Source: Bacilli bacterium (lineage in GTDB: Bacteria > Bacillota_I > Bacilli_A > RFN20 > CAG-826). Taken from it: a stretch of DNA of 64,000 nucleotides. Positions 12,194 through 28,700 of the stretch are shown piece by piece (position 1 is the stretch's first letter; each line of letters starts with the position of its first letter). A program made the position numbers and the translations under genes. The notes under the pieces were generated by a model that saw nothing but the letters and a program-made list of their open reading frames with translations, made no database searches and was not told the DNA's origin. The stretch lies in contig JBGUMU010000034.1 of the NCBI GenBank assembly GCA_045116995.1, positions 15,854 to 79,853 of the forward strand, read 5' to 3'.

Positions 12194-12214
12194 ATAATTT
12201 ATTAAACTCCTTAT

Positions 12215-12253
12215 AAACGACAAAATCACTCAACTTATCTTCTAAACTGAGTG
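12215..12253 (-). promoter_or_regulatory. Terminator-like hairpin in the 5' leader of P0 (possible attenuator or riboswitch expression platform)
   Basis: On the minus strand CACTCA-N15-TGAGTG is followed by ATTTTGTCGTTT. This sits immediately upstream of the AAGGAG RBS (12207-12212) and ATG 12193. Confidence 0.4.
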
Positions 12254-12632
12254 GATGATAGATTTTGCATCACATGTCGCCAATAAGAAATGGGACGTTC
12301 TTATCGCTTTCGCTTTGCACAAATAGTATAGAAAAAAATCGTAAAAATAGTCAAACATTATTTTTGTATACAAAGTATAAAACTCGCGAAAAAACAGCAA
12401 ATAAATAAGCTAAAACGGTTTTGAAGGCCGATAACAATGCCACGACATCAAACATTAGATCCAGGATGTGTTTTCCTTCAAATAAACTGTTGAAAAGACT
12501 TATGAAATAAGAATACTGTTTAACCTATCTTTACGTGCATATTTTGAGCGTTATGTGCAAAATTAATTTGCCATTTAAGAAAGAGATATTATAAAATAAC
12601 CTCGTATATACCACTAATTGGTGTTCGTTAAT

Positions 12633-13001
12633 ATGAAAAAAATCAAATTACCTTTAATCATTGCTGGTCTAGTGTTGGATGTTGGTGTTACCATCTTCCT
12701 TTTTGTCATTAGCATCATGATATTAGTTAAGGTTATCCCGGCTGCTACTATCAACGAAGCTATTAATAACTCTCAGAACTGGCCATTAATTCATTACCTA
12801 TTACAAAATCCAACAGTTTATCTCGTTGCGTTTGTCATTCCATTATTTGTTCTCTTGGCATTGAATGTTATTGGCTTAATTATTTACGTCAAGAAAACAA
12901 GTGGTGCCAAACCAGCACAACTCGATGATCTCTCTGAAGAACAAAAAGAAGCTCTCAGACAAGAACTTCTCAAAGATCTCCAAGGCGAGAAAAAAGAATA
13001 A
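12633..13001 (+). CDS. Small membrane protein (3 TM) with charged C-terminal tail
   Basis: MKKIKLPLIIAGLVLDVGVTIFLFVISIMILV... with C-terminal LSEEQKEALRQELLKDLQGEKKE. ATG 12633 is preferred over the upstream TTG. Confidence 0.6.
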   Translation: MKKIKLPLIIAGLVLDVGVTIFLFVISIMILVKVIPAATINEAINNSQNWPLIHYLLQNPTVYLVAFVIPLFVLLALNVIGLIIYVKKTSGAKPAQLDDLSEEQKEALRQELLKDLQGEKKE

Positions 13002-13008
13002 TACACAT

Positions 13009-13027
13009 AGCGCGCAAGCGCTTTTTC
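13009..13027 (+). terminator. Rho-independent terminator
   Basis: AGCGC-GCAA-GCGCT hairpin (13009-13022) followed by TTTTT. Confidence 0.7.
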
Positions 13028-13111: not shown

Positions 13112-13180
13112 TAAAAAGCAAAACCGGAGCAATCCGGCGACGCAAAACTATAGGGTCTTAGTATAAGATAGCCAGCAACC
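13112..13180 (+). promoter_or_regulatory. Candidate c-di-GMP-I (GEMM-I) riboswitch aptamer
   Basis: AAAAAGCAAAACCGGAGCAATCCGGCGACGCAAAACTATAGGGTCTTAGTATAAGATAGCCAGCAACC. It contains GCAAAACC, a CCGGA-GCAA-TCCGG hairpin with a GNRA loop, GACGCAAAAC, a second hairpin (CTAT..CTTA-GTA-TAAG-ATAG), then AGCCAGCAACC. The order and wording resemble the GEMM-I consensus (GGCAAACC-hairpin(GAAA)-GGGACGCAAAGCC-hairpin-AGCxGGGxxACC). Not verified with a covariance model. Confidence 0.45.
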
Positions 13181-13214
13181 TCAATCGATTAACTTTGATT
13201 GAGGTTTTATATTT
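13178..13214 (+). terminator. Leader terminator 1 (overlaps the 3' end of the candidate aptamer)
   Basis: ACCTCAATC (13178-13186) pairs with GATTGAGGT (13197-13205), followed by TTTTATATTT. Confidence 0.6.
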
Positions 13215-13354: not shown

Positions 13355-14224
13355 ATGTACGATTATGTTTTGGTAAGAAGACGTAGAAGAAGAAAGATCG
13401 CTGCATTAGTCAGTCTCATCTGTTCAATCGGCGTGACTGCATTAATCATCGTTTCATTCCTCGGACAATACACCGGTACTTTTACCGTTTCTTTAACCAA
13501 CTCATCTGTTAGATTGTCACTATCAGAAACTCAAAGTTTCGCTAATCCAACATCTTATCTTCGTATCGATAAGCTCAACTTATTCGAAGAGTCTACGTAT
13601 GTTAACATCAAAGACGAAGGTTTAGATGATGAAACAAAGGCTTATGACTGTGGCCAACACGAAATCAAAATCAAAAATAAAGATGGTAGTGTAACCACAA
13701 AGCAAGTCCTTTCCTATTTCAAGTACACATTCTATGTGGGTAACTTAGGGAGCAAAGCGGCGCAGTACGACATGCAAATTAAATTGTTGGAATGCTCGCA
13801 ATCCACGGATGGTACTAATAGAACTTTGGATGATACTTTAAGAGTTATGATTTATGAAAACGATATCGATGATGATAACAATTCGGGGGTTCATAATGTA
13901 GACGTCTATGCTAAAGAGAACGCTATAGGAAACATTGATATCGATGATGGCAACACAACACGTGAATTTATTTCTTCTCGTCCTAGAAGAGATTATTTAG
14001 GACCACAAAAAGAAGATGAAGATCACAAATTAGCTATTTCTTTCGAGAAATTGGATCTTATTCACACATACAGCCGAGATGGTTTCTTCGCAGGCCAAAT
14101 CCGTAGATATACATTAGTCTCATGGTTAGAAGGAGAGGATAGAGATTCTCTCAACAAACAAGGTACCCCTGTTGGTGCTACTTTAAAATTAGGAGTTGAA
14201 ATAACTGCTTATGAAAATGAATAA
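13355..14224 (+). CDS. Membrane-anchored paralogue P1 of the TasA-like family (degenerate cleavage motif; candidate anchor or base subunit)
   Basis: N-terminal RRRRRRK plus a TM (IAALVSLICSIGVTALIIVSFL), then QYTGTFTVSLT in place of GT-x-A-W-Y/F. It shares the mid-protein LRVMI box and the C-terminal SWLEGEDRD...LKLGVEITA with the paralogues. Confidence 0.6.
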   Translation: MYDYVLVRRRRRRKIAALVSLICSIGVTALIIVSFLGQYTGTFTVSLTNSSVRLSLSETQSFANPTSYLRIDKLNLFEESTYVNIKDEGLDDETKAYDCGQHEIKIKNKDGSVTTKQVLSYFKYTFYVGNLGSKAAQYDMQIKLLECSQSTDGTNRTLDDTLRVMIYENDIDDDNNSGVHNVDVYAKENAIGNIDIDDGNTTREFISSRPRRDYLGPQKEDEDHKLAISFEKLDLIHTYSRDGFFAGQIRRYTLVSWLEGEDRDSLNKQGTPVGATLKLGVEITAYENE

Positions 14225-15173
14225 AATTATAATTCCTGCTGCAATGTTAGCAGTGGGTGTCGCGCTCGTAGGTTCTGTTTCTAGTACCTTAGCGTGGTAT
14301 CAATACTCAACAAAAGCACAAGCAGCGTATATTGGAACCAGCGCCGGAGTTTCTGAAAACTTACAGATTCAAAATAAAAATGGTGATTGGGTTTCAAATT
14401 TATCTTCCTCCGATATCGCAGATTTAATGGAAACTGGTGTTGGTTCTGAACTCACACCAATCTCTCCTGCTATCGAGGGTAATTTAGATGCTACTTCTGC
14501 TCTACCAAATGGCGGTTTCTATAATAGCGTTGAAACTGGCGTTGGTGGTGTTGAAACATATGGTGATCGTAGAGCAAATAATAAGAATTACGTTGAATTC
14601 ACTTTAAAGATTAGATATTTGAAAACAAATTATGCCAATCCAAGCGATCCTTATGGTTATGCAAATAAAGCTTTAAAATTAGTCGATTTAACTATTCTCG
14701 ATGGATCCACAAACGCAGATTTGTACAAAGCTGTTAGAGTTCATATCTCTTCCGCTTCAGGAAACTACTTATTTATGAAGGATTCTACCACCAATGAAAC
14801 AGTCGAAACCGCCACATATGGTAAACTTGATACCGATAGTCGTGATGGTTTAGACACAGGCTGGGCGTATGAATGGGAATCTTCCCCTGAAATCGTTTAT
14901 GGTAAAGATGGATCAATTCAAACAGCGTACAATTCAAACTATTCCGCTGGTTTAAATAAACAAATCGGTGAACTTCCTGCAAGTAATGAAAACGGTTTAG
15001 CCGTGAAAGTTACTATTTGGCTTGAAGGATGGCAAAAATTATCCGGTGTTCCAACCGGTAACGCTGAAGCATCATCTGGTAGTTCTGCTATGTGGGATCC
15101 AACCGTTTATGCCAACAAGCAATTTAAGGTTGGTATGAGATTCCAAGCTGATGATATTCAACAAAATCCATAA
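14211..15173 (+). CDS. SipW-type signal peptide protein, TasA-like paralogue P2
   Basis: MKMNKIIIPAAMLAVGVALVGSVSSTLAWYQYSTKAQA, then AVRVHIS, then TIWLEGWQ...FKVGMRFQA. Overlaps P1 by 14 nt. Confidence 0.65.
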   Translation: MKMNKIIIPAAMLAVGVALVGSVSSTLAWYQYSTKAQAAYIGTSAGVSENLQIQNKNGDWVSNLSSSDIADLMETGVGSELTPISPAIEGNLDATSALPNGGFYNSVETGVGGVETYGDRRANNKNYVEFTLKIRYLKTNYANPSDPYGYANKALKLVDLTILDGSTNADLYKAVRVHISSASGNYLFMKDSTTNETVETATYGKLDTDSRDGLDTGWAYEWESSPEIVYGKDGSIQTAYNSNYSAGLNKQIGELPASNENGLAVKVTIWLEGWQKLSGVPTGNAEASSGSSAMWDPTVYANKQFKVGMRFQADDIQQNP

Positions 15174-15212
15174 TTGATATTTCGTCAAGGATTCGTTTTA
15201 TTTGGAGAATAA

Positions 15213-16370
15213 ATGATGAAATTCAACAAAGTTAAGTTTGTTGTAGCTGCTTTGTCCATGTGCTGCGGAGCCGCCCTCTTGGGTTCGATTTCAAGCACGA
15301 TTGCGTGGTATCAATTTACCACACGTGTATCTGCTGTTATCGTTGGTGCCTCGACAGGTGAGAAGAGCAATTTGAAAATAAGGATTAAAGGGACCAATAA
15401 TTGGAATTCCGACTTGACCTTTCATGATATCAATGAATATCTTGCGTCAGTCAACAAAGGCCAACAAATTACTCCAATTACTTCAGGATTTATGAATGCA
15501 GATGATCCTATTAAAAAAGATAATAACGATCAAATGATTTTTTACCAAAATCCAGGCGAAGAAGATATTGAAAGAGTACCTTATGATAGCCCTTCCTGGA
15601 GAAGAGCGGATGATTCCATGTATGTCTCAATTCCTTTAGAACTTTCATATATCCAAAAAGTCGAAGGAAGTGAACAATTCTTAGAAAAAGATGTGTATAT
15701 CTCTGATTTGCTAATTCAAGAAGATCGCAAAAATAGCATTAATGCTAAAAAAGATTTATCTGAAGCAATCCGTGTACACATCAGCACTTACCAAAGCAAC
15801 GACAAACAAAATACTGAGTTGAATAGATTAATCTCCAAAAATGGTGGAACCATACTGACCGAAGGCCATTTAGATATTGGTGGTGATGGTGATTTAGATG
15901 AATACATCGAAGGTCATCACGGACCAGACTATGGTTTTATTGATGAAGACGATACCGAAAGATACTATGTCACCTATGGTGAAGGTGTCCAAACAGCTTA
16001 CAGTAATCAATATGACGTTCAAGATAATTCATATAAGACACTTAGTGGTCAAACCATTAATGAAAAGGTTTATCCAACAGTAGTCAAATCTATTGATGAT
16101 TCCAACGTTTTAGATGAAGAAAGTTTTGAATATCAAAAAGAAGGCGAAACCGCCAAAACATCTAAATGTATTGGCAAGACAGTAGCCTTTGAAGGTGAGC
16201 AAAATGAAGCTTACCTCAATGTCGTTATGACGATTTGGGTTGAAGGATGGCAACCATTCCCTTCCCCAACGGCCGCTGATCCGAATGCAAAATCACCTAT
16301 CTGGAATGCATCGGACTATATTGGCTCAATGTTTGATGTCGGCATTGAATTTGCCGTACAACAAGACTAA
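15213..16370 (+). CDS. SipW-type signal peptide protein, TasA-like paralogue P3
   Basis: ..ALLGSISSTIAWYQFTTRVSA, then AIRVHIS, then TIWVEGWQ...FDVGIEFAV. Confidence 0.65.
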   Translation: MMKFNKVKFVVAALSMCCGAALLGSISSTIAWYQFTTRVSAVIVGASTGEKSNLKIRIKGTNNWNSDLTFHDINEYLASVNKGQQITPITSGFMNADDPIKKDNNDQMIFYQNPGEEDIERVPYDSPSWRRADDSMYVSIPLELSYIQKVEGSEQFLEKDVYISDLLIQEDRKNSINAKKDLSEAIRVHISTYQSNDKQNTELNRLISKNGGTILTEGHLDIGGDGDLDEYIEGHHGPDYGFIDEDDTERYYVTYGEGVQTAYSNQYDVQDNSYKTLSGQTINEKVYPTVVKSIDDSNVLDEESFEYQKEGETAKTSKCIGKTVAFEGEQNEAYLNVVMTIWVEGWQPFPSPTAADPNAKSPIWNASDYIGSMFDVGIEFAVQQD

Positions 16371-16488
16371 AAAATCCAGATAAACTCCATAAATATTTAT
16401 TAAACTTTTGAATAAGAAAATATCAGCAAAGTCTCATATACATATACACACATGAGGCTTTGCTGGTGTAAAATGAAAGAAAGGGTAT

Positions 16489-17697
16489 ATGAAAAAGACA
16501 ATTAATCCATTAAAACTAGTTATCGGTATTCTCGGCTTATCGTCAGTCGCTGCTTTAGTGGGCTCAATAAGTGGTACCGTTGCGTGGTACGCATATTCAA
16601 CGCGTGCTCTTATTTCATATACCGGCACTTCTGCGCAATCTAGTGCGCAACTTCAAATTGGCTTGAGAGCTACAGAACGTGTTCCGTTGCTTGACGAAGA
16701 TCTTTTAGTTGATGAAGTAATCGAAGAAAATGGTTATTTTTACTACTTCACACATCTCGGCTCAGGCGGTATGCCATCAAGTGTCATTAATAAATATCTC
16801 GGTGGTAGTGGCTTTGCTACAACTACATTGGAGCCTGTATCAACTTATAGTTATGATGGCAGTCAACCATTTGTTTTGAAAAACTGCCCAACAACAAACG
16901 AACCAGAAGAACGCTCAAATGCGCCAACATCAAAGTATGTTAAGATTCCATTTGCGTTCCGTGTGTTCAATACAATTTCAAACGGTCAAACCGTAACAAC
17001 ATCAGTCGCAAATAAAAACATTTATTTAAGCAATGCTGTCGCACAAGTTAGCAATGAAAAGCTTGGTATCGGTGAAGCAATCCGCTTGTTTGTTGATAGA
17101 ACTGATAATTTAAGCGACTATATTTTTAATCCAAACGCTGCAACTGATGGCTCAACCAAAACCGGTGGTGTCTTAGATCTTTCCGGTAATGGATATTTCG
17201 ATTATGACAACAATCCTTCTCATGGTGATATATATCTCCATGAATACATCTATGGCGATTATTCTTATAAGACTGGCTATGGATTAAATAGTGGCTACGT
17301 AAGTCAAGGTGCAAACGATAGCGACTATCATGACATTAACAAAACAGGTGTTGATACCACAGAAGAAGGATTTGATGGTACAACATTTACAGCTAAACAC
17401 CGTAGAGGAACAATGCATTTAGACTACAGCAATGGCGAAGAATTGGAAGACTACGTGACTTTAGGAACGGCTTCTTACCTTGGCAAGAGTTCTGTATTCC
17501 CAACCAAAACCAATGGTGTCCTCTCTGGTAATAACTTTGTTTGTAAAACAGCTGAATCAAACGTTTCCGAAAAGAATATTGGTTCATTTGACTTAACTGT
17601 TTATATAGAAGGCTGGGATCGTGCCACAATCAATCAACATGGTAATGAATATTTCAATCTCGGCTTAACATTCGAAATCGGCGCAACAAATAGCTAA
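16489..17697 (+). CDS. SipW-type signal peptide protein, TasA-like paralogue P4
   Basis: ..ALVGSISGTVAWYAYSTRALI, then AIRLFV, then TVYIEGWD...FNLGLTFEI. Confidence 0.65.
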   Translation: MKKTINPLKLVIGILGLSSVAALVGSISGTVAWYAYSTRALISYTGTSAQSSAQLQIGLRATERVPLLDEDLLVDEVIEENGYFYYFTHLGSGGMPSSVINKYLGGSGFATTTLEPVSTYSYDGSQPFVLKNCPTTNEPEERSNAPTSKYVKIPFAFRVFNTISNGQTVTTSVANKNIYLSNAVAQVSNEKLGIGEAIRLFVDRTDNLSDYIFNPNAATDGSTKTGGVLDLSGNGYFDYDNNPSHGDIYLHEYIYGDYSYKTGYGLNSGYVSQGANDSDYHDINKTGVDTTEEGFDGTTFTAKHRRGTMHLDYSNGEELEDYVTLGTASYLGKSSVFPTKTNGVLSGNNFVCKTAESNVSEKNIGSFDLTVYIEGWDRATINQHGNEYFNLGLTFEIGATNS

Positions 17698-17708
17698 TGA
17701 GGTTTAAC

Positions 17709-18815
17709 ATGAGAAAAAGAAATCTAATCATTTCTCTCATATTAGGAACTGCAGCACTTACTGTGCTGGCTATTCCTGTGGCCACAATTGCATGGTATGC
17801 AAGTAGCGATCGTCTTCAAGTTAATTCAATTGATTTGGATTTAAGAACAGACGAATCTGTTGGCTTACTTATTGGTACAAGCGCTGATGAAGAAGCTTTT
17901 AAAGAAAAACTTGAAACAAAAGACTTAAAAAAAGTTGGTGAGTTTGTTCCTACTTCCAGTATGTTCCAAGATAGTTGGATGAGCACTAAAAGTGATTTAC
18001 CATTATTCTATGATTCAACATCCGATGTTGCTCCAGATGGCATTCCATCTCTAGAAGTTAGTAATAAAGGCTTTTTCCAACAAAAGTTATATCTTTTAAA
18101 CAACATTGATTATTATGTCACACTAGATACTGAGCAATCCTTTGTCACAAGTGACAAAAACTCTAATCATTTACGCGCGCAGGCTCTTGTGGGTAAAGTC
18201 GGTTCATTAACTGTTGATGAAATCGAAGAAAAATTAAACAACTTAGAGAACAGTATTAGATTCTCCATCCTTGTCAATACTCCAAATTACTACAAATACT
18301 TCATTGTTAATCCAAACAAAAAGGAAAACGAAGTCACATATTACGCTGGTAGATTAGACAACAATGGTGATGGTTATTTCGATACTTTTCCAGCTCTTGA
18401 TAATAACAACCAAGTAATTGAAAAAGAGATTATCTATGGTGAAATCGAAAATCGTAATCAAATCGCTTATGACAATCCTCAAAGCGATACATTAGCTCCT
18501 ATTGAAGATTATGATCCGTTTAGACACAATTTCTTTGGTAACTCATTCGAAGGAAAGAGCAAAGAAACTGCCTACACTTACAATGAACAAAATTCACTCC
18601 AAGCGGGTGTTAAATATAAAGAAGAACCATCTATCTCATTAGATGAAATCGCTTCCGATGACAATCCATTATTAATCCCATGCTATAACGGTGTTCCTAC
18701 CGAAATAGTGTTATCCATCTATTTAGAGGGTTGGGATTTAGATTGTTACAACTCCACAATGGGAGCGAGCTTCAATGCACAATTATCTTTTAAATTATTA
18801 AGGGGGATTATCTAA
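17709..18815 (+). CDS. SipW-type signal peptide protein, TasA-like paralogue P5
   Basis: MRKRNLIISLILGTAALTVLAIPVATIAWYASSDRLQV, then SIRFSI, then SIYLEGWD...FNAQLSFKL. ATG 17709 (GAGG 6 nt upstream) is preferred over ATG 17697. Confidence 0.65.
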   Translation: MRKRNLIISLILGTAALTVLAIPVATIAWYASSDRLQVNSIDLDLRTDESVGLLIGTSADEEAFKEKLETKDLKKVGEFVPTSSMFQDSWMSTKSDLPLFYDSTSDVAPDGIPSLEVSNKGFFQQKLYLLNNIDYYVTLDTEQSFVTSDKNSNHLRAQALVGKVGSLTVDEIEEKLNNLENSIRFSILVNTPNYYKYFIVNPNKKENEVTYYAGRLDNNGDGYFDTFPALDNNNQVIEKEIIYGEIENRNQIAYDNPQSDTLAPIEDYDPFRHNFFGNSFEGKSKETAYTYNEQNSLQAGVKYKEEPSISLDEIASDDNPLLIPCYNGVPTEIVLSIYLEGWDLDCYNSTMGASFNAQLSFKLLRGII

Positions 18816-18816
18816 T

Positions 18817-20340
18817 ATGGCTTCTTATTTCGAATATTTAAGGAAAATGTTCCTTTCAGTCCTACAACACATCGGTACATTCCTTTATAAGGCATTTATC
18901 TCACCATGGACTGATTTAGGCCGTAACTTTGCAGTCTATAACGACTACATGGGTGAACACTGGGCAACATTCGGTCCAGTCGGCTGGATTTTCTGGGTTA
19001 TTTTCCTATTATTATTCATCGGCTTAATCGCTGGTCTATTATTCTTACTTATCGTCTTCTTCCGTAAGTATGTACGTTTCGTGCGTAAAGAATTGGACAA
19101 AGAAGAATTATCTAGACAAGTTGATAGACTTAACTATGAGTTATTCCAAGCCATCCAAGAAAAAGATAAAATCCTCAACCTTAAAGTTGGTTATATGGGT
19201 TTACGTGGTGGTGAATCTCAATTAGATAAAGAAAGCCAAGAAATCGTTGAAGAAGTCTCCTCTAGATTCCCAAAACTTATCCATGTTGATAACAAATATA
19301 GAGGTTCTAACATGGATATTCCAAATAGACCAAACTTATCCCTCGAAGAATTATGTAATGCCTTCCGTAACTTCGCTGCATCTCAATTGAAGTTATATTA
19401 TAGGGAAGACGTTATTAAACAATTATTTGCCGGTATGGCCGCCTCTAAGTTAATCATCTTAGAAGGTATCTCTGGTACAGGTAAAACATCCTTAGCGTTC
19501 GCTCTTGGTAAATTCTTCAATTTCGATAGTGCGATTATTCCAGTTCAACCATCCTGGAAAGATAGAAGTGAATTATTAGGTTACTATAACGAATTCACTA
19601 AGAAATTCAATGAAACTGAATTCTTAAGAGCGTTATACACAACCACCTATAGACAAGATTTAGACGTCATCGTCCTCGATGAAATGAACTTAGCCCGTAT
19701 TGAATACTACTTCGCTGAATTCTTATCCATCATGGAAATGAGAGATCCTAACGATTGGGTCATCGATTTAATCCCAGCCCCAATGGCTAATGACCCAGTT
19801 AACTTAAAAGAAGGTAAACTCTTAATTCCTCAAAACGTCATCTTCTTTGGTACCGCCAATAACGATGATAGTACATTCACTATCTCTGATAAGGTCTATG
19901 ACCGTGCGGTCTCTATCTTCTTTGATGATAAGGGCAGACCATTTGAATGCGCTCCTCAAGAAGCCATGAACGTTCCATATAGTCAAATTAGAAAACTATA
20001 TGATGATGCGATTACCCAATTCCCAATCTCTAGAGATATGTCCGACAAGTTCGAACAACTCGATAACTTTGTCATTAAGAAATTCAAACTCGCCTTTGGT
20101 AACCGTATCTTAAAACAATTAGAAACATTTATCCCAGTCTACGTGGCCTGTGGTGGTAAAGAAGTCGATGGTTATGACTTCATCTTCACTAATAAGGTCT
20201 TAAAGAAATTCGAATCTCTTAACATCGCCTTCTTAAAAGACGAATTAAAAGAACTCGATGCTCAATTAGACAAAATGTATGGCAAGGGTAACTTCAAAAT
20301 GGCCCATAGCTATATCGATAACTTAATTAAAAACAACTAA
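18817..20340 (+). CDS. Membrane-anchored McrB-family (AAA_5-type) AAA+ NTPase
   Basis: N-terminal hydrophobic hairpin (GWIFWVIFLLLFIGLIAGLLFLLIVFF). Walker A LEGISGTGKTS (19465-19491). VIVLDEMNLARIEYYFAEFLSIME can be compared with McrB DEINRANLSKVFGE. FFGTANNDDSTFTISDKVYDRA can be compared with McrB GxMNTADRS...D.AxRRRF. Confidence 0.8.
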   Translation: MASYFEYLRKMFLSVLQHIGTFLYKAFISPWTDLGRNFAVYNDYMGEHWATFGPVGWIFWVIFLLLFIGLIAGLLFLLIVFFRKYVRFVRKELDKEELSRQVDRLNYELFQAIQEKDKILNLKVGYMGLRGGESQLDKESQEIVEEVSSRFPKLIHVDNKYRGSNMDIPNRPNLSLEELCNAFRNFAASQLKLYYREDVIKQLFAGMAASKLIILEGISGTGKTSLAFALGKFFNFDSAIIPVQPSWKDRSELLGYYNEFTKKFNETEFLRALYTTTYRQDLDVIVLDEMNLARIEYYFAEFLSIMEMRDPNDWVIDLIPAPMANDPVNLKEGKLLIPQNVIFFGTANNDDSTFTISDKVYDRAVSIFFDDKGRPFECAPQEAMNVPYSQIRKLYDDAITQFPISRDMSDKFEQLDNFVIKKFKLAFGNRILKQLETFIPVYVACGGKEVDGYDFIFTNKVLKKFESLNIAFLKDELKELDAQLDKMYGKGNFKMAHSYIDNLIKNN

Positions 20341-20350
20341 TTAAAACACC

Positions 20351-22597
20351 ATGAAAAAAACGAGTAACAGCAATAAGCAGATCAATAGAGCCTACCATAG
20401 TGCGCTTAAGAAAATCATCAAAGGTTCCCACGAAAAGGAAATCTATGATGCTTTAAGCGCGGGTAAGAACTCTTATTTAAGACTTGATCGTTTAGCGTCT
20501 TCCTCGTTTGATAAGAGCTGGATTGAAGTGATTGAAGGCTGTATCTTCGATTTAGGCGAAATCATCGCTAATCCAAGACAACACACTAAAATCACTGGCA
20601 ACTTAACACCAGTTGAACTCGCTAAAAAGGTCACATCAGAATCTGTCCAACACTTAGCGAGCCATACTCAATATATTAAAGAAGTCGATGAATACGGAAA
20701 CGTCATCCCTTCTAAAATCTTATCCATGAGTAGTGATGATGATTTACATACTTATGAAAATAGATTTATCGCTACATTCGTAAGAAGATTATTCTTATTC
20801 ATTTCTAAACGTTATGAATTCGTTTCTAAATTCGCCGAATTACATAACGAAGAAATCCTATACTTTAAAAACAAATCCATCGTCGATGGAGCGGAAGTAG
20901 AAATTGAAACAAAGATTAAAGTCTCTTATAAGAACGAAAACGAAGAAACTAGAATCAACAGTGGCTACGTTGAAAGAATCAAACAAACTAGAGACTATAT
21001 TTCCTATTTCTATAACTCTCCATTTATGAAACAAATGAAGAATGAAAAGGATGTTAGAAATCCAATCGTTCAAACAAACATCATTAGAAAGAACCCTAAA
21101 TATAGACACTGCTACGAAGTGTATAGATTCATCGAAACCTATGACCGTTTAGGCGTGAACTATAAGGTCGATGAAAACTATTCCATGTTCAATAACGAAG
21201 AGTTGGCGGAACTCAATAGAACATTATTCGCTAACTACGTGACCTTAAGAGGTAATGATGGTAGTAGAGAAAAGAAAGTTAACACTAAAGTCTATAAGCC
21301 ACGTATCTTAACAAGCTTAGAAGATGAATCATTTATATATGGTCCATTACTTGAAGGTCCAATTTCTTTTGCACGTGTGGATGATGGTTATCAAGCCTAT
21401 TTAGATAGCAAGATTAAAAAAGACTTACCACTCCATCCAACTAAGAAAGAAAAAGAATATTACGAAGATGAATACGCTGCGAAGAAAGAAAATCAACAAG
21501 ATCAAAAAGCTAAAGCCGATTTATTAAAACGCAGACAAAAAGAAGTTAACGCTTTTGAAAAGAAAGTGAAGAATATCTTAGCAAAACGTGAAGAAGCGAG
21601 ATTAAAACTCATCGAAGCGGAAAAGAACGCCATTAGACAAGAAGAAGAAGACTTAGTCAACGCCATGAGAAGAGAAATCATTGCTGCTTCGCAAAAAGAC
21701 GTTACTGAGATTGTTAACGCTAATAATGGTGGCAAACCATCTAAGAAAGCCGCTAAAGAAGAAGTTAAGGAATATAATCCAACAGTTTCATTTAATGACG
21801 CTGCGGATGAGATTTGGCCACAATTAAATAATCCAACTCCATTACCAGTGGAAGAAAAGCCAGCACCTCAACCAGTTAAACCAGTAATAGTGGAACAACC
21901 AGTTCAAGCAGAATCTGCCCCTGAAGCTAAACCAGCGCCAGCACCTGCTAAAGTTGAAAAGGTCTACATACCAACTGTTAGCTTCAACGAAGCCGCAGAC
22001 GAAATCTGGCCACAACTTAATAATCCAACCCCAATGGCTAAACCAGTGGAAGAAGTTAAAGTGGCCCCAGCCCCTGCTAAGAAGGCTAAAGTGGTTAAAC
22101 CTGCTCCAGTCGTGGAACAAGCACCAACTGAACAAAAACCAGTGGAAGCTAAACCAGCCCCACAACCAGTCAGAGTGGAAAAGGTTTATGTCCCAACAGT
22201 GAGCTTCAATGATGCTGCTGATGAGATTTGGCCACAATTAAATAATCCAAAACCACTTCCTAAAGAAGAGCCTAAACCAGCGCCAGTGCAAAAGCCTGCT
22301 CCTAAAAAAACAGAACCAGCGCCAGCGCCTGCCAAGGAACCTGTTAAGGAAGAAGCAAAGCCAAAAGGCAAACCAATTAAAAAGTATTTCTATAGAAGTG
22401 ATGGTACAGTGGCCATCATCTATAAGAAAGATAAGGCTCATAAGGAAGAAAAACCTGCTCTTACAAAGGAAGAGCCTAAGAAAGAAGAACCTGTTAAGGA
22501 ACAGCCAAAGGCTGAACCTAAAAAGGAAGAAAAGAAAGAAAACAAACCACAAAATGTGGTGAAGAGTAAAAAGACCCGTAAGAAATTTAGAAAGTAA
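20351..22597 (+). CDS. McrC-position partner protein: N-terminal globular domain (DUF2357/McrC-N-like guess), coiled-coil, Pro/Ala/Lys-rich tail with three conserved 19-aa motifs
   Basis: 748 aa with no TM. TYENRFIATFVRRLFLF resembles the ENRF box I associate with McrC/DUF2357 partners (from memory). There is a K/E-rich coiled-coil around aa 380-460. PTVSFN(D/E)AADEIWPQLNNP occurs three times in a PAPxPxK-type linker. No PD-(D/E)xK nuclease motif is recognisable by eye. Confidence 0.5.
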   Translation: MKKTSNSNKQINRAYHSALKKIIKGSHEKEIYDALSAGKNSYLRLDRLASSSFDKSWIEVIEGCIFDLGEIIANPRQHTKITGNLTPVELAKKVTSESVQHLASHTQYIKEVDEYGNVIPSKILSMSSDDDLHTYENRFIATFVRRLFLFISKRYEFVSKFAELHNEEILYFKNKSIVDGAEVEIETKIKVSYKNENEETRINSGYVERIKQTRDYISYFYNSPFMKQMKNEKDVRNPIVQTNIIRKNPKYRHCYEVYRFIETYDRLGVNYKVDENYSMFNNEELAELNRTLFANYVTLRGNDGSREKKVNTKVYKPRILTSLEDESFIYGPLLEGPISFARVDDGYQAYLDSKIKKDLPLHPTKKEKEYYEDEYAAKKENQQDQKAKADLLKRRQKEVNAFEKKVKNILAKREEARLKLIEAEKNAIRQEEEDLVNAMRREIIAASQKDVTEIVNANNGGKPSKKAAKEEVKEYNPTVSFNDAADEIWPQLNNPTPLPVEEKPAPQPVKPVIVEQPVQAESAPEAKPAPAPAKVEKVYIPTVSFNEAADEIWPQLNNPTPMAKPVEEVKVAPAPAKKAKVVKPAPVVEQAPTEQKPVEAKPAPQPVRVEKVYVPTVSFNDAADEIWPQLNNPKPLPKEEPKPAPVQKPAPKKTEPAPAPAKEPVKEEAKPKGKPIKKYFYRSDGTVAIIYKKDKAHKEEKPALTKEEPKKEEPVKEQPKAEPKKEEKKENKPQNVVKSKKTRKKFRK
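21779..22249 (+). repeat. Three in-frame copies of a 57-nt unit encoding PTVSFN(D/E)AADEIWPQLNNP
   Basis: Copies at 21779-21835, 21971-22027 and 22193-22249. The peptide is identical except for one D/E, while the DNA differs at many synonymous sites. Confidence 0.9.
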
Positions 22598-22600
22598 TTT

Positions 22601-23479
22601 ATGAGCGAAGTAGTTAAAGAAAAACGCGTCAAGAAACCAAAAAGTAAGGCCAGAAAAATCGTGGAATGGATCCTTACTGGTATTTTCCTCGTGATTTTCG
22701 GTGTCGTCATGGCCGCTCAAATTGATGGTATGGTCCATAAGAATGATCACTATGGTCAACAAATTAGATTTGGCTATGGTACCTTCATGGTTAAGACCGA
22801 TTCTATGAAACCAGTGTACGGCATTGATACTGCTTTAATTACTTACTTAGAAGACGCTGATAAAATCTACGACCGTTTCCAAAAGGGTGAAACTGTCGAT
22901 ATCACATTCGTCCATGTTCCAGTGGCTAATAACGAATATACCTCTCCTAGAGATAATCCAGAATTAACCGTTAGAACTAATGCTAGTAGTGATAAGCAAG
23001 TGGACGGCATCCCTATGACCCATAGAGTGAGAGAAATCCACATCAATGAAAGTGTCGCTAAAGGTAAAGGTCGTTACACATTCATCACCGCTGGTATCAA
23101 TACCAGAAGTGAATGGATGGGTTGGCAAGAAGGTCAACCAGATATGGTTATTAACCAATATCAAGCGATCACAGAAAAAGAACTATTAGGTAGAGTGGTG
23201 GTTAACTCTCCATTCTTAGGTGGTGTCTTCTCATTTGTGAGTTCTGTATTTGGTTTATTAATCTTATTACTCATCCCAGCATTTTATTTAGTCATCACTA
23301 GTGTGATTGATATATTTAAGGCTTATAAAGAGCCTGAAGAAGCTAAAGAAGGAGCAGGAGCCACACCAAATAGTGGTGGTACCGTTACTCTTTCCGAAGC
23401 GGACAAAAAGAGACTTAAAGAGCAACTATTAGAAGAAATGATTGCCAAGAAGAAAGGAGAAAGCAATGAAAACAAGTAG
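22601..23479 (+). CDS. sipW: SipW-like (S26B, ER/archaeal-type) signal peptidase I with an enlarged extracytoplasmic domain
   Basis: N-terminal TM. VKTDSMKPVY can be compared with SipW SGSMEP (Ser codon 22802-22804). QKGETVDITF, then MTHRVREI compared with VTHRIVDI (catalytic His). A C-terminal second TM (FGLLILLLIPAFYLVITSVIDIF) as in SipW. The GDNN Asp box reads AGINT. Confidence 0.75.
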   Translation: MSEVVKEKRVKKPKSKARKIVEWILTGIFLVIFGVVMAAQIDGMVHKNDHYGQQIRFGYGTFMVKTDSMKPVYGIDTALITYLEDADKIYDRFQKGETVDITFVHVPVANNEYTSPRDNPELTVRTNASSDKQVDGIPMTHRVREIHINESVAKGKGRYTFITAGINTRSEWMGWQEGQPDMVINQYQAITEKELLGRVVVNSPFLGGVFSFVSSVFGLLILLLIPAFYLVITSVIDIFKAYKEPEEAKEGAGATPNSGGTVTLSEADKKRLKEQLLEEMIAKKKGESNENK

Positions 23480-25007
23480 AGGTCGATTAACTGCAGTTAT
23501 CATTACTGGTATCCTTCTCATCGTCGCCTTTGTCCTCGCGGGTATGGCGATGATTGGTCATGTCTTCGGTGATAACACCCCATTAGCGAATATCATGAAC
23601 GCTTCAGCCATTGGTATGACTGTTTTATTCGTTAGTAGTGTTTATCTTTTAGTTAGTAATCTTTCCATGATTAAGACTTTACAAGATGATAACGAATATA
23701 ACTTAGGTGTTAGAAGTGCCTTTAATAACATGTATGCCTTCCAAAAACGTGTGGAAGTCCTTTCTAGATTAAATAAAATCACCAAGAGACAAGAACACAT
23801 TATCGCCTTTACATTCTCCTCTCTTGTTGTTTCTCAAAACGTTAATAGAAACCATGAAATCTATTTAATCAACAATCACATCGCTAACTTCTTAAATGAT
23901 TTACCAACAAAGATTAACGCTAAGAAGAGAGACTTTGTTTATGCCTTCTCTCGTGGTTCTTTCTTAATCTACTGTGCAAAACAAAATGAACAATCCATTC
24001 AAAACATCTGCGAAATCATCGCTAAAGATATTTATGACTTTGGTGAACAAAACTGCCGTCATATCTGGGTCCAACCATTCTTCGGTGTCACCCGTGTCTA
24101 TGATAGTGAACTTTTAACTCACCAAATTGAAAACGCATTATTAGCTAGAGATAATTCTGAAAGAAACTTTGAAACAGTCACTTATTATCAAGAAACATTC
24201 CGTAAAAGTGTGGCCGCTAACGACATTGAAGAATTAACTCAAGCTTTAGAAAATAAAGAATTCGTTGTCTACTATCAACCAAAGTTTGACTTAGCTAAAA
24301 GACAATTTATTTCTTCAGAAGCTTTAATTAGATGGAACTCCAAGAAGTACGGCTTATTAGCGCCTACTAAGTTCTTAAATAAAGCCGAAGCTATTGGTTT
24401 AATCCATGATATTGATATCTATGTCTTAAGACAAGTTTGTGAAGATTTAAATGAACTTATTAGAAGAGGTAGAAGAGTCTTACCAGTCTCCGTTAACTTC
24501 TCCTTATATGAATTCTATAGTGCGAACTTCTTAGATACCATCATGGGTATCTTAGATGAATTCCATGTTCCAACAAATTTAATTGAAATTGAAATTACAG
24601 AAGCGACATCACAAGCTAACCAATTCTTATCCATCTCCATTATTAAGAAACTTAAAGAAAACGGTATTCGAGTCTTAATGGATGACTTTGGTATTGGTTT
24701 CTCTAACGTCGGTAACTTAAAGAAGATTCCATTCGACGTTGTTAAGATTGATAAATCATTTATTGATGGCATTGTTAACGACACTAAATCACGTGAAATC
24801 GTGAGATTCTTAATTGGTCTTTGTAAGATCAACGGTATGGAAGTCGTTGCCGAAGGTGTTGATAACAAAGAACAAGTTGAAATATTAAAGAAGGCGAAGT
24901 GCGATACAATTCAAGGTTTCTATTATTCTGAAGCTCTTGAAAAGAAAGCTTTCGAAAGATTCTTAGATAATAACCCATTTGAAAAGAAGGAGGGCGTTAA
25001 AGCATGA
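23466..25007 (+). CDS. Membrane-bound EAL-domain c-di-GMP phosphodiesterase with degenerate GGDEF-like middle domain
   Basis: Two N-terminal TMs. The EAL set appears complete: YYQPKF, SEALIRW, SVNFS, EIEITE, MDDFGIGFSN, VKIDKSF, VAEGVD, IQGFYYS. The GGDEF position reads SRGSF. ATG 23466 (AAAGGAG RBS) overlaps the sipW end by 14 nt. Confidence 0.85.
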   Translation: MKTSRGRLTAVIITGILLIVAFVLAGMAMIGHVFGDNTPLANIMNASAIGMTVLFVSSVYLLVSNLSMIKTLQDDNEYNLGVRSAFNNMYAFQKRVEVLSRLNKITKRQEHIIAFTFSSLVVSQNVNRNHEIYLINNHIANFLNDLPTKINAKKRDFVYAFSRGSFLIYCAKQNEQSIQNICEIIAKDIYDFGEQNCRHIWVQPFFGVTRVYDSELLTHQIENALLARDNSERNFETVTYYQETFRKSVAANDIEELTQALENKEFVVYYQPKFDLAKRQFISSEALIRWNSKKYGLLAPTKFLNKAEAIGLIHDIDIYVLRQVCEDLNELIRRGRRVLPVSVNFSLYEFYSANFLDTIMGILDEFHVPTNLIEIEITEATSQANQFLSISIIKKLKENGIRVLMDDFGIGFSNVGNLKKIPFDVVKIDKSFIDGIVNDTKSREIVRFLIGLCKINGMEVVAEGVDNKEQVEILKKAKCDTIQGFYYSEALEKKAFERFLDNNPFEKKEGVKA

Positions 25008-25747
25008 TCATGATTATTGGTAGCCAACATGATGATATCCTCTATTTCGAAAGTGTTATCACTAACAAAAGAGAAGAACTCATCATGGGCAAATTCAAAG
25101 TGACCATTGGTACCATCTTTAACCAAGCGGTCATGTTAGTGGATCAAGTTAAATCTAACTACTTAAGTAGCGCTCTTACTTTATATTTGATTGAAAAATA
25201 CTTCGTCATCCTTGTTTTAGTGGTGGGCCGTTGTGTGGCTTACACGAAAGACTTAAAACCATTAGACATCGTTATCTCTAAGCATGTCGTCTTAGGGGAC
25301 GTTGACCAAGTTAATGAAGATAACGTTAAATACGGACAAATCCCAGGCTTTGAACAAGTCTTTGATGCCTCTGAAGACGTTGTCTCCTATATTGAAAGTG
25401 CTTTTGAAAAGAGAACATACTCTGTCTTTAAAGAAGCTAACTTCATTTCCACATCTGTGGACTACCATAAGAAAGAACAAATCTATGATATCCATGAATT
25501 TGATCATATCTTAGGCTATGACACTAATGTGGTCTTTGACACCAATACCGGTGGTGTTGCTGTCGCTTGTAACTTAACTAAAGTGCCTTTCGTCTCGATT
25601 AAAGTCGTGGAAAGATACTTAGAAAAGAATAGTGATGTCAATACATACTTAAAAGCGATGAAAGAATATGTGAATATCGGTAAAGCTGTTGTTACCTGTA
25701 TCGGTGATATTGGCCGTAACGAAATCATCACAGAAGGAGGTAAGTAA
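25004..25747 (+). CDS. MTA/SAH-nucleosidase (PNP_UDP_1) homologue with degenerate active site
   Basis: Collinear with E. coli MtnN: MIMIIGSQHDD vs MKIGIIGAMEEE; LKPLDIVIS vs LKVGDIVVS; KYGQIPGFEQVF vs EYGQLPGCPAGF; VPFVSIKVVERY vs VPFVVVRAISDV. The catalytic or ligand positions (E12, SGIGK, TGSAGG, EME, SD197) read D, QVKSN, VGRCVA, DTN, VE. The ATGA overlap with the upstream stop is at 25004-25007. Confidence 0.6.
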   Translation: MIMIIGSQHDDILYFESVITNKREELIMGKFKVTIGTIFNQAVMLVDQVKSNYLSSALTLYLIEKYFVILVLVVGRCVAYTKDLKPLDIVISKHVVLGDVDQVNEDNVKYGQIPGFEQVFDASEDVVSYIESAFEKRTYSVFKEANFISTSVDYHKKEQIYDIHEFDHILGYDTNVVFDTNTGGVAVACNLTKVPFVSIKVVERYLEKNSDVNTYLKAMKEYVNIGKAVVTCIGDIGRNEIITEGGK

Positions 25748-25748
25748 T

Positions 25749-28700
25749 ATGGCATTCTATAATAGAAACCGTTCCATTAAAATCTTCTTCCGTTTCGTCA
25801 CAATTTTCCCAATTGTGTTCCTTAACGTTTTAGTCATTGTGATGACACTTTTAACATTCTTCTATGCAAGAACTGATAACTTCGCTTTCTTCTTAGCGAT
25901 TCTCATCTTCGGTGGTGTAATGATTATCTTATATATCGTTCAAACCGTCTACATCATGACGCAGTTTAGAAAGGTCTTTATTAATGGTCTTTATGGTGTC
26001 ACTGTTTCTAACTTTGAAAATATCGCTAGAAATGAAAATGACTTCCGTGAATATCCAAGTAAGCAATACATTGAAATCAACGCTTTAAACGAACACGTTG
26101 ATACATTAAGAAAGAGCCTATTAGGCGCGACCATTATTCCAAGCAACAATGACTTTGATGATATTGAATTAGATTATATCGATAAGGAAAAGAACCTTAT
26201 TACTTTTGAATCTTTCAAAAGAGAATTAGAAAACATCATCTTCAAATCCCAAAACTATCGTAACATCATCATCGAAACATATTATGAATTTGAAGAAGAA
26301 GGCTTAACCAAAAAGAATATCGACTATGTCCTTAAAGTCTTAAAAGATAACTTCTTTGATTATGAAAGCCCATTATATGTCCTTGGTGAAGACAATAAGA
26401 GTGTTTATCTCTACTTACCAAGAATTGATTCTTTAAGCAAAATTAGAGAACAATTAGAAACATGTATGAGAAGTGCTTCTATTTCTAAACGTTTAACTGA
26501 AGGTATTACTCCATTAACCGCACATTTCTCTGTGGTCTGTTACCCATATAGTGACGTTCCAGAATTAATCCCAGACTTACGTTATGCAAAACGTCAAGGT
26601 AACGATATTTTCTTCTATTTACCAAACCGTTTAAATACTTTAAAGAACAATGCGATCTTAAGATATTCCACAAACCTTAACTCTATGAGTAAAATCATCG
26701 CTCCATTATCCACGATGAGGTTTGGTTCTGCTTACACTAAGGAAAATACTAAGATTATCCAAGAGACAATTAAAACCACCGCCCAATACTTTGGTATCAA
26801 CTATGCAGGTATCATCGCTTTAGATGCGGTTAATAAACGTTATGTCATCGCTTATCAAGCAAATGATGACGAAATCAACCCATTAAGTCACGATGGCACT
26901 GTGAACCAGGCTTTAATTAGCATTATGGACGAAACTAAGGACGATAATGGTTCTTACTACTTCTCAATCAGGAATCACGCAAATAACGCCCTAGGACGTC
27001 ATTTAGACCGCATTGGCCTTGAAAGTGGTTTCTATTACGTCATTAAGAGTAATGATGTAGTGCAAGGTGTCATTTATTTCTTTAATAAAAATAAAGAGCT
27101 TAAGTTCGATTCTTATATCCAAGAATCCATGTTAATGCTTTGTACAAGAATTAGCTCCTTCTTAATTAGTGAGAAGAGAGACGTTGAAATCGAAAGCTCA
27201 TTTGATGAAATCGACGCCATTCTTAAAGTTGCTGACTTCTCGACATACCGTGTCAGTGCGGATGACTTCACTTTATTAAATGGTTCTCAAACCATGAAGA
27301 ACTTATTCCCTGAGATTAAATATGGTGAAAAGTGCTATAAGACAATGTATGGCTTAGATGCCCCTTGTAAAGACTGCCCACTTCTCACTGGTAATAAGAA
27401 AATGGTGAAGTATGGACGTGATAACTATGAGACATCATTGTTATTATCTGACCACCATAACATTTATCGTGTTTTATCCATTAAGAATATCTACTCCCAT
27501 AAATCACATGGTCGTTATAACCAAGATCTTCTCATCAACAGTTTCCATACCCTTATTGAAAACTTAGAAGATATCTATGCGATGAATGGTAAAGGTTACT
27601 TATTATTACTTAGAATCGATAACTTAGAACAACTCGTTGAAGAACATGGTTCTGAAGGCACAATTACAATTCTTCGTGACTTCTCTAAACGTGTTAAAAA
27701 AGCCCACCGTGGTTTAGAAAATATCTATTACTACACTAACCAATTCTTAGCGATGCTATTCTACGAATATGGTCAAACTGACATCTTAGATGAATGTGAA
27801 AAGATCTACGCTATCGCTAAAAACGTTGATAAGTCTGCTGACTATGTTTTAGATATCACCTTCTTACCAGTCAGTTATCCTCGTGTTTATCCAAATGCCA
27901 CAAGCTTAATTAAACAAGCCGATGTCTTCTCCACAAGAGGTCATTATGATGTAAATAAAGACTTCATCTATTTCGATGAAAGTAACTATTCAAGAAGTGC
28001 TAATAGAGAAGAATACATTCTTTCTATTATTAAGAAAGCCTTCAGTGATAAGACATACGAAATCAACTTACAACCAATGGTTAATGCTGGTGATAAGCAA
28101 ATCTATGGTGCGGAATTACTTTTACGTATTTCTGATGATTATCGTAATGTCGCAATGCGTACTGATGAAGTCGTTAATGTCGCGGCGAAACACAATCAAA
28201 TTGGTATTATTTCTCACGCCCTTCTTGATTTCACCGCTTCCTTATATAAGGAATATGGTGCGATGTTCTTCTCATCTTTAGGCTTTAGAAGATTTGGTCT
28301 TAATACTGACTATTCCTTCTTTACCGATAAGAACTTCGCTAAAGATATTAAAAAGTATATTGAAAGTCTTAAACTTCCAAAGCACTTCATCGCTTTCGAA
28401 ATTCCTGAAAACGATGTCTCTACCCATATCGATGAATTTAAGCAAATTGGTAAAGTGCTTAGAGATCTCAATATCGTCTTAGTGTGTGACCAATATACTG
28501 GCCGTTATATCTCCGTTGAAATCTTAAAAGAAATCGGTTTCGATGAAGTGAAGATTTCTCGTAACCTTGTCAATCACATCGATAGTGATAACCAACGCTA
28601 TAACGCCTTAAAAGCTTTATTACAATTAATCCGTCGTTTCAACATGAAAGCTTCTATCGTCGGTGTTGAAAACATTGACCAATACTTACTCATTAAAGAA

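Follow-up and report, generated by a model that had tools for sequence, protein, structure and literature searches.

The stretch analysed here (hereafter the window) comprises 64,000 nucleotides from a Bacilli bacterium of the lineage RFN20, CAG-826 (GenBank assembly GCA_045116995.1, contig JBGUMU010000034.1). Its gene at positions 18817-20340 encodes a nucleoside triphosphatase (NTPase) of the AAA+ class that resembles McrB of Escherichia coli and is predicted to be anchored in the membrane, and the next gene encodes a putative McrC-like partner. This pair sits in a cluster of genes for secreted proteins, a SipW-type signal peptidase and cyclic di-GMP (c-di-GMP) enzymes, a setting that recurs around most of its membrane-anchored homologues. 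The features of the AAA+ gene are as follows, with positions in the protein given in amino acids (aa):

18817-20340, forward strand: McrB-like (NxD-clade) AAA+ NTPase, 507 aa (Pfam AAA_5, PDB McrB matches, hhalign, PADLOC PDC-M26A)
18970-19062, forward strand: hydrophobic membrane segment, aa 52-82 (FGPVGWIFWVIFLLLFIGLIAGLLFLLIVFF), followed by RKYVRFVRK (Kyte-Doolittle, homologues, flank charge)
19084-19188, forward strand: heptad-like (coiled-coil-like) linker, aa 90-124 (heptad heuristic only)
19390-19911, forward strand: AAA+ core, aa 192-365 (motif positions, invariance in 30 homologues, alignment to McrB residues 176-350)
19465-19488 and 19666-19683, forward strand: Walker A (GISGTGKT) and Walker B (VIVLDE), within the core
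19858-19866 and 19888-19908, forward strand: signature N348-N349-D350, and DKVYDRA with R363, within the core
19912-20337, forward strand: conserved C-terminal region, aa 366-507 (homologue alignment)

Full-length relatives of the protein (72-91% identity) occur in metagenome-assembled genomes (MAGs) of 'Bacilli' and Erysipelotrichaceae, and when representatives clustered at 50% identity were searched exhaustively, 8432 clusters passed E<=1e-3, 742 of them with E<=1e-30, so that the gene can be taken as real. Its ATG at 18817 follows the TAA stop of the preceding gene, P5 (17697-18815), after one base, as the initial annotation had described, the stop occupying 18813-18815, and a Shine-Dalgarno-like AAGGGGG lies a few bases 5' of the start codon. 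It is this 1-nucleotide spacing that suggests translational coupling between the two genes. The motif strings quoted in that annotation were likewise all located in the protein: GTGKTS at aa 220-225, LDEMNLARIEYYFAEFLSIME at aa 287-307, GTANNDDST at aa 345-353 and DKVYDRA at aa 358-364, with a hydrophobic stretch at aa 56-82 and a charged linker (ELDKEE...QEKDK) at aa 92-118. Across 30 diverse homologues, K223 of Walker A, D288 and E289 of Walker B, N348, D350 and R363 are fully or almost fully conserved, and by this conservation the protein looks catalytically competent. Its C-terminal region (aa 366-507) is family-specific and carries an FGNRI..Q...VPVYVACGG motif; aa 362-507 gave no Pfam match, and the region has no database counterpart.

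Pfam AAA_5 matches the protein at 24.1 bits, barely over the cut-off of 22. Of all AAA+ chains in the PDB, E. coli McrB alone is matched significantly, at E 6e-4 for the single sequence and E 3e-6 for a profile of 30 family sequences run against PDB sequences, and MoxR, dynein and CbbQ-type AAA_5 proteins are absent from the PDB-sequence matches even at E<=1. When the family profile was compared with McrB of E. coli K-12 by hhalign, a probability of 97.1% was obtained (E 5e-11, 168 columns, McrB residues 176-350). The claim that the motor domain is McrB-specific rather than generic AAA+ is thus supported. The signature itself reads N348-N349-D350-D351, with N348 and D350 invariant and D or E at position 351 among the 30 homologues. 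An NxD variant in which E or D usually comes next defines a major branch of McrB-like GTPases, in which no protein has been characterized so far (Bell et al. 2024, PMC11090510), and our signature matches it. The core is also matched by the PADLOC profile PDC-M26A (E 4e-40, profile positions 314-437 of 724), so that an automated defence annotator could mislabel the gene. Among the PDC-M26 components this A-profile alone was matched, the partner, SipW and P5 matching no PADLOC profile at all, and a literature search on PDC-M26 found nothing.

The N-terminal 190 aa, where McrB has its DNA-binding domain, contain no Pfam domain, and no nucleic-acid-binding specificity domain was found there. At this position, as first proposed, lie a hydrophobic segment of 27-31 residues and a coiled-coil-like linker, the latter being supported by the heptad heuristic (aa 90-124). 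The membrane segment reaches a Kyte-Doolittle 19-residue mean of up to 3.26 and is kept in all close homologues; in 59 of them the uncharged part measures 28 aa (median), and its flanks hold, per 15 residues, 1.3 K/R and 1.8 D/E on the N-terminal side and 4.8 K/R on the C-terminal side. Owing to the positive-inside rule, this charge pattern would place the AAA+ domain in the cytoplasm and the N-tail of about 50 residues outside. The initial annotation had proposed a membrane hairpin, which our analysis does not bear out: the segment is a single continuous one with an acidic N-flank and a basic C-flank, and a single helix with its N-terminus out and its C-terminus in is simpler and would suit the charges at least as well. 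A re-entrant hairpin is conceivable, given the length of the segment and the small residues in its middle, and nothing demands it.

The gene downstream of the AAA+ gene has the following features:

20351-22597, forward strand: McrC-like partner without nuclease, 748 aa (Pfam DUF2357, AlphaFold 2 (AF2) model, synteny)
20351-21490, forward strand: conserved N-domain, aa 1-~380
20558-20827, forward strand: DUF2357, aa 70-159 (Pfam)
21518-21649, forward strand: coiled-coil-like segment, aa 390-433 (heptad heuristic)
21731-22594, forward strand: Pro/Lys/Glu-rich tail
21785-22240, forward strand: three copies of VSFN(D/E)AADEIWPQL in the disordered tail, at aa 479, 543 and 617 (regular-expression search)

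A Pfam scan over the whole 748 aa returned no match. With the first 350 residues alone, DUF2357 was detected at 27.6 bits (gathering score 23.3); the orthologue from Ruminococcus (locus L067) reaches 44.7 bits, and many database homologues bear a precomputed PF09823 label. DUF2357 is described as the N-terminal domain of McrC, which activates McrB (PMC11090510), and E. coli McrC itself matches Pfam McrBC (PF10117) and not DUF2357. The AF2 model of aa 1-400 (predicted local distance difference test score, pLDDT, 80.7; predicted template-modelling score, pTM, 0.54) consists of helices and long beta-hairpins (aa 165-194), with just one strand beyond residue 200 and an unbroken helix at aa 372-399, after which come the coiled coil and the disordered tail. 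No nuclease domain was found in the partner by Pfam and the model has no room for a PD-(D/E)xK fold, so that the nuclease is predicted to be absent and not just inactivated. Lysine and proline each make up 18% of the last 288 residues. The VSFN(D/E)AADEIWPQL repeats, which look like a short docking motif, are confined to the closest relatives (locus L002 and 3 of 98 database homologues).

Three partner variants were seen at related loci. In one Ruminococcus MAG (L041, 7353-10307), DUF2357, the coiled coil and the SipW catalytic core share a single 984-aa ORF (open reading frame), a single case that may be either a Rosetta-stone fusion or the product of a lost stop codon or assembly artefact. 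Three MAGs of Acholeplasmataceae/Tenericutes (L056, L061 and L065) have small secreted proteins of the type described below directly after the AAA+ gene, with no DUF2357 partner detected. At L142 the partner (1123 aa) joins DUF2357 to an acetyltransferase domain of the GNAT type and is followed by a Wzy_C-like membrane protein.

The secretion genes around the pair are:

22601-23479, forward strand: SipW-type (S26B) signal peptidase, 292 aa (NCBIfam SipW partial match, catalytic-core alignment with six homologues)
17697-18815, forward strand: secreted AW[FY]-signal protein P5, 372 aa (...VATIAWYASS; C-terminal YLEGWD)
16489-17697, forward strand: secreted AW[FY]-signal paralogue, 402 aa (signal motif)
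15213-16370, forward strand: secreted AW[FY]-signal paralogue, 385 aa (signal motif)
14211-15173, forward strand: secreted AW[FY]-signal paralogue F1, 320 aa (AF2 all-beta sandwich, disordered N-terminus)
13355-14224, forward strand: first gene of the cluster, 289 aa (Arg-rich N-terminus, transmembrane (TM) anchor without AW motif, C-terminal WLEGED)
11093-12229, reverse strand: divergent AWF-signal secreted paralogue, 378 aa (signal motif)

The peptidase has an N-terminal TM segment, the catalytic Ser in DSMKP (22799-22813), the His in THRV (23018-23029), a C-terminal TM segment and a charged C-terminal tail, which its homologues in related loci likewise possess. NCBIfam SipW matches it partially (E 1.5e-7, far under the cut-off). 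Between its Ser and His motifs the window protein also carries about 40 inserted residues, and TAGINT takes the place of the T(K/R/Q)G(D/V)xN of six homologues.

In the four paralogues encoded at 14211-18815, a hydrophobic core is followed by (S/G)T(L/I/V)AWY and the C-terminus carries W(L/I)EG(W/E)(D/Q). A-W is invariant in the signal region, and 123 ORFs near related loci (L001-L081) contain the AW[FY] motif. AF2 predicts an all-beta sandwich for F1 (pLDDT 85.4, pTM 0.83); in the Foldseek list for this model, jelly-roll, lectin and pilin proteins stand at noise level only, and the profile of the subunit family matched no PDB sequence. When 104 AW-signal proteins were scanned with Pfam and NCBIfam, essentially no family emerged, TIGR04088 (the SipW-cognate signal) giving weak matches in two of them. 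The neighbours had initially been called TasA-like. This label was dropped, since neither Foldseek nor the PDB profile search gave a significant match and virtually no Pfam or NCBIfam family was found. We describe them instead as SipW-class secreted proteins, predicted beta-sandwiches and putative fibre or pilus subunits, which look like an undescribed subunit family. The product of 13355-14224, whose TM anchor looks uncleaved, is a possible membrane-anchored base subunit; in many of the mapped related clusters a homologue of this gene is the first of the subunit genes. At the end of the cluster of Acholeplasma granularum ATCC 19168 (L055, 14633-16936), a 767-aa AWF-signal protein contains four CBM_5_12 stretches (E 1.5e-17) and could be a sugar- or chitin-binding adhesin at the tip of a fibre.

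The conservation of this setting was assessed in a one-genome-per-species scan, which yielded at least 592 confirmed relatives of the AAA+ protein; the best 80 of these at least 592 loci, at 89-43% identity, were kept. Genes at related loci are our own greedy longest-ORF calls, in which some are missed or split (a 287-aa gene after the partner of L001 was not recovered), and neighbours were detected with hidden Markov models (HMMs) built from the window proteins, SipW by an HMM of the catalytic core only. The kept loci belong to MAGs of Erysipelotrichaceae and Bacilli and to Acholeplasma granularum ATCC 19168, Izemoplasmatales, Ruminococcus, Oscillospiraceae and other Clostridia. The partner gene directly follows the AAA+ gene in 69 of the 75 loci that extend far enough downstream. 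Where at least 4 kb were available on each side (37 loci), a SipW core was found in 35, AW-signal proteins in 33 and EAL genes in 31. The initial annotation had called for a survey of how often TM-anchored McrB homologues neighbour sipW. Of 83 membrane-anchored homologues whose flanks were long enough, 72 have a SipW-core gene in the range -3.5/+6 kb (40/43 of those with one TM segment, 13/14 with two or three, 19/26 with four or more), which is the opposite of a distribution over defence islands without SipW. Chance insertion of a defence pair into a fibre operon was also considered and rejected, as gene order persists across classes and over the whole range from 89% to 43% identity. Acholeplasma and Clostridia have two SipW paralogues around the pair, one of about 230 aa upstream and one of about 200 aa downstream; most of the more distant lineages have two such flanking copies, and the lineage of the window one.

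Mobile elements carry little of this family. No full-length match to the AAA+ protein, and none covering >=80% of the query, was found among 72,556 plasmids; two partial matches were found among 50,697 phage records; and a scan of viral contigs with the 2-TM clade gave no relatives. The soluble relatives on plasmids are ATPases of about 790-800 aa, followed by a 'DUF2357 domain-containing protein' (RefSeq) in four-gene cassettes, and neither of the two plasmid cassettes inspected has an annotated signal peptidase near the pair.

The relatives with four TM segments, from gut metagenomes, have a different but analogous conserved cluster, seen for instance on a human gut contig (L104, 5619-17717) and at about 55 similar loci among L082-L161. 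There, small proteins with a 'GFAAWI' signal are followed by a SipW-like gene (335 aa in L104; ~340), the AAA+ gene (~607 aa) and the partner, which in L104 has 421 aa and ends in a Cys-rich motif. After the partner comes a conserved run of four to five genes, the first two of which resemble by sequence an ABC-transporter ATPase and permease; in L104 a 262-aa P-loop protein, a membrane protein of 530 aa and two proteins of 823 and 366 aa are encoded, the last of which contains a Listeria-Bacteroides repeat.

Further features of the window cluster concern its extent and its link with c-di-GMP:

13009-13022: terminator-like hairpin
13177-13206: terminator-like hairpin, 12-bp stem, just upstream of 13355
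23442-25007, forward strand: EAL-domain membrane protein of c-di-GMP phosphodiesterase type (Pfam EAL E 5.9e-67), overlapping the end of the SipW gene
25004-25747, forward strand: PNP_UDP_1-like protein (Pfam)
25689-28814, forward strand: 1041-aa membrane protein with C-terminal EAL domain (Pfam EAL E 3e-31), last co-directional gene

The genes from 13355 to 28814 are co-directional and often overlap, with no strong terminator-like site inside the run, which suggests a single operon; the hairpins at 13009-13022 and 13177-13206 probably mark the start of this fibre/NTPase transcription unit. The 1041-aa EAL protein is conserved in L001, L002 and L004-L017, and the PNP_UDP_1-like gene between the EAL genes was recovered in 13 of 82 sources searched, mostly closer relatives. 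The occurrence of EAL genes in 31 of 37 loci suggests that the system may be under c-di-GMP control. One or more EAL-domain genes also belong to the co-directional run of A. granularum (L055, 2340-6124). Ahead of the window cluster (12618-13001) lies a gene for a 127-aa protein with two TM segments and a charged C-terminal tail, which recurs in some related loci. Iterated HMMs for this protein and for SipW were rejected, both having converged on the same 123 ORFs through TM and charged regions.

A clade with such traits has already been named. CoCoPALM was introduced in a survey of McrB proteins, placed next to the CoCoNuTs and deferred to a future paper (Bell et al. 2024, PMC11090510); its treatment there amounts to three sentences with no component list. 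The traits reported are an NxD McrB GTPase, an N-terminal region with TM segment and coiled coil homologous to FtsB, an association with the signal-peptidase family, and coiled coils on the McrB as well as on the McrC homologue (PMC11090510). The window locus encodes an NxD NTPase in which a TM segment and a coiled coil replace the DNA reader, a DUF2357 McrC homologue with a coiled coil and, adjacent to them, a gene of the signal-peptidase family; the coiled coils of both proteins (aa 90-124 of the AAA+ protein, aa 390-433 of the partner) are at the level of the heptad heuristic. Of the N-terminal architecture given by Bell et al., the TM segment and coiled coil are confirmed in our predictions and the FtsB homology is not, Pfam having detected no FtsB/DivIC similarity in the N-terminus of the AAA+ protein or in 30 relatives. 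The locus therefore appears to fit all CoCoPALM features that could be tested, and nothing contradicts its membership. Bell et al. drew the same context-based inference independently, and the idea having been flagged in print (PMC11090510) limits the novelty of this locus; the clade itself is experimentally uncharacterized. We found no follow-up paper on CoCoPALM, and literature joining McrB with SipW or TasA consisted of E. coli genotype mentions only. Beyond the published account, our analysis reveals variants with one, two to three and four or more TM segments, flanking SipW pairs in Acholeplasma and Clostridia, the linkage to EAL genes, the complete absence of the nuclease, a secreted-subunit family without Pfam, NCBIfam or PDB match, and a TM-anchored first subunit.

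Three further systems can be compared with the locus. With E. coli McrBC (PDB 6hz4, 6ut6), the window pair shares the alignment of Walker A, Walker B, signature Asn/Asp and Arg, and the organization as a two-gene operon whose second gene holds the activator (DUF2357) domain. It differs in having a membrane anchor instead of the N-terminal DNA-binding domain, an NxD instead of an NxxD signature, a partner without PD-(D/E)xK nuclease and without detectable similarity to E. coli McrC itself, and a context of secretion and fibre genes rather than restriction-modification. CoCoNuT (CnuB/CnuC) and PDC-M26 proteins fall into the NxD AAA+ subfamily of the window protein (~35-45% identical across aa 150-505) and also have coiled-coil fusions and DUF2357 partners. 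Unlike the window protein they are soluble, with 700-870 aa, long N-terminal coiled coils and often a plasmid location, and CoCoNuT proteins are accompanied by nucleases or helicases (PMC11090510). The operons tapA-sipW-tasA of Bacillus subtilis and sipW-bsaA-bsaB-bsaC of Clostridium perfringens resemble the window cluster in combining a SipW peptidase with several paralogous secreted proteins and in their SipW-class signals (hydrophobic core, then A-W/F-F/Y), and for the window subunit, too, an all-beta fold and a free N-terminal segment are predicted. The window subunits, however, match neither the TasA/camelysin Pfam family nor TasA structures, and the cluster adds the McrBC-like pair and the c-di-GMP enzymes. 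Neither of these two operons is known to contain an NTPase. TasA and BsaA assemble outside the cell by donor-strand exchange (PMC11580942).

Taken together, the McrB-like core, the DUF2357 partner and the synteny with SipW and AW[FY] genes support the main thrust of the initial annotation, in which a McrBC-type motor has been recruited to a membrane-associated role: the motor would have lost its DNA reader, gained a membrane anchor and come to work with the fibre/SipW gene set, and not in restriction. More specifically, we consider it fairly probable that the pair forms an NTP-driven, membrane-anchored ring which gates or powers SipW-linked fibre assembly under c-di-GMP input. If E. coli McrBC is taken as the model, six copies of the AAA+ protein would form a ring under the membrane, held by six TM helices, and the DUF2357 domain of the partner would plug this ring and switch on the hydrolysis of GTP or ATP. 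Judging from the genomic context, the nucleotide cycle could be relayed through the TM and coiled-coil stalks to a membrane platform including SipW, with its charged cytoplasmic C-tail, and perhaps the TM-anchored first subunit, through its Arg-rich cytoplasmic N-terminus. The ring would thereby drive or gate the cleavage-coupled release and polymerization of precursors tethered by their signal peptides, yielding a surface fibre or pilus, and the c-di-GMP enzymes would set the timing or input. A broader proposal, which we advance tentatively, is that an uncharacterized nucleotide-dependent pilus or fibre pathway of Bacillota and wall-less Mollicutes has its cytoplasmic motor in the McrB-like ring together with the nuclease-free activator; the subunits of this pathway would be beta-sandwiches without match in Pfam, NCBIfam or the PDB, processed by dedicated SipW paralogues and controlled by c-di-GMP, and the whole would constitute a new class of machinery for surface filaments that arose from a restriction enzyme.

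Several points weigh against a motor for fibre assembly. The interpretation is built on sequence and context. As known SipW-dependent fibres require no cytoplasmic NTPase, the need for a motor is unexplained, and the notion of a fibre itself derives from the type of signal, the presence of paralogues and the beta-sandwich model. Indeed, the F1 model has no significant Foldseek match in the PDB (best E 0.037, TasA outside the top 50), and Peptidase_M73 (TasA/camelysin) was detected in one of the 104 AW-signal proteins, at E 0.0099, and in none of the five window paralogues. Direct comparisons of the partner with McrC also failed: hhalign against E. coli McrC gave a probability of 1%, the partner profile retrieved from PDB sequences no McrC and only low-complexity coiled-coil noise, and the N-domain model had no significant Foldseek match in the PDB, to McrC or otherwise (best E 0.057, template-modelling score ~0.1). 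The link between them is consequently that of Pfam DUF2357 with the equivalence published in PMC11090510. The absence of a Pfam-detectable FtsB homology in the N-terminus of the AAA+ protein and the identity of the closest PADLOC profile, the defence candidate PDC-M26A, count on the same side. Finally, the association is not obligatory, since seven of the 26 homologues with four or more TM segments have no SipW nearby, six of them being stand-alone AAA+/DUF2357 pairs among housekeeping genes (L124, L126, L139, L141, L142 and L153), and three Acholeplasmataceae loci lack the partner.

A second reading is that the pair is a regulatory switch, adjusting SipW activity or operon expression to c-di-GMP, or a quality-control device that pulls uncleaved or misassembled precursors out of the membrane, as do membrane-anchored AAA+ proteins like FtsH or Bcs1. 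Donor-strand fibres require no external energy, which such a role would accommodate, and the EAL genes in 31 of 37 loci, the charged cytoplasmic C-tails of the SipW homologues and the one partner-SipW fusion all suit it. Moreover, SipW of B. subtilis also acts as a regulator, and this second role requires its C-terminus. Yet no c-di-GMP-binding domain was detected by Pfam in the AAA+ protein or the partner. The architecture expected of a switch is the same as that of a motor and nothing here separates the two; we regard the switch as unlikely.

Less likely still, and in our view rather improbable, is that the pair has remained a conflict or defence module, as a membrane-bound McrBC derivative that might sense phage at the fibre, which could be a likely receptor, or act as an abortive-infection effector; this would be why it accompanies the fibre genes, without a part in building the fibre. 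The McrBC family as a whole is defensive, the nearest soluble relatives are the plasmid-borne four-gene cassettes with DUF2357 partners, PDC-M26A is the best PADLOC match (E 4e-40), and the clade adjoins the CoCoNuTs in the survey of Bell et al. (PMC11090510). However, the partner lacks a nuclease or other effector domain, no further PADLOC component was matched, and the neighbours are EAL/GGDEF and housekeeping genes rather than defence genes. Gene order is moreover stable across Bacillota classes and Mollicutes, whereas defence islands are usually patchy, and the 72,556 plasmids and 50,697 phage records hold no full-length copy.

A function in the envelope or cell division through an FtsB-like N-terminus, with incidental proximity to fibre genes, would agree with the FtsB homology reported by Bell et al. 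(PMC11090510) and with the several 4+-TM homologues that stand alone among housekeeping genes (secA and gatB neighbours), but is very improbable in view of the missing Pfam DivIC/FtsB match in the protein and 30 relatives, of the FtsB topology (N-terminus in, coiled coil outside), which would put the NTPase outside the cell and contradicts the flank charge bias, and of the SipW/subunit linkage in 72 of 83 homologues.

The preferred reading, a restriction-type motor turned to fibre assembly, can be directly tested, as a cultured carrier exists in A. granularum ATCC 19168. The system is also widespread, with at least 592 genome matches and thousands of protein clusters, and is common in Bacillota of the rumen and the human gut. 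McrBC is the textbook modification-dependent restriction enzyme. If our reading is true, a motor-activator pair devoid of nuclease and DNA reader, and fixed to the membrane within a fibre operon, would represent a clear example of a defence machine reused for surface assembly. SipW-dependent fibres such as those of TasA and BsaA are considered to form with no input of cytoplasmic energy; a dedicated NTPase would imply either a different principle of assembly or an unrecognized control step.

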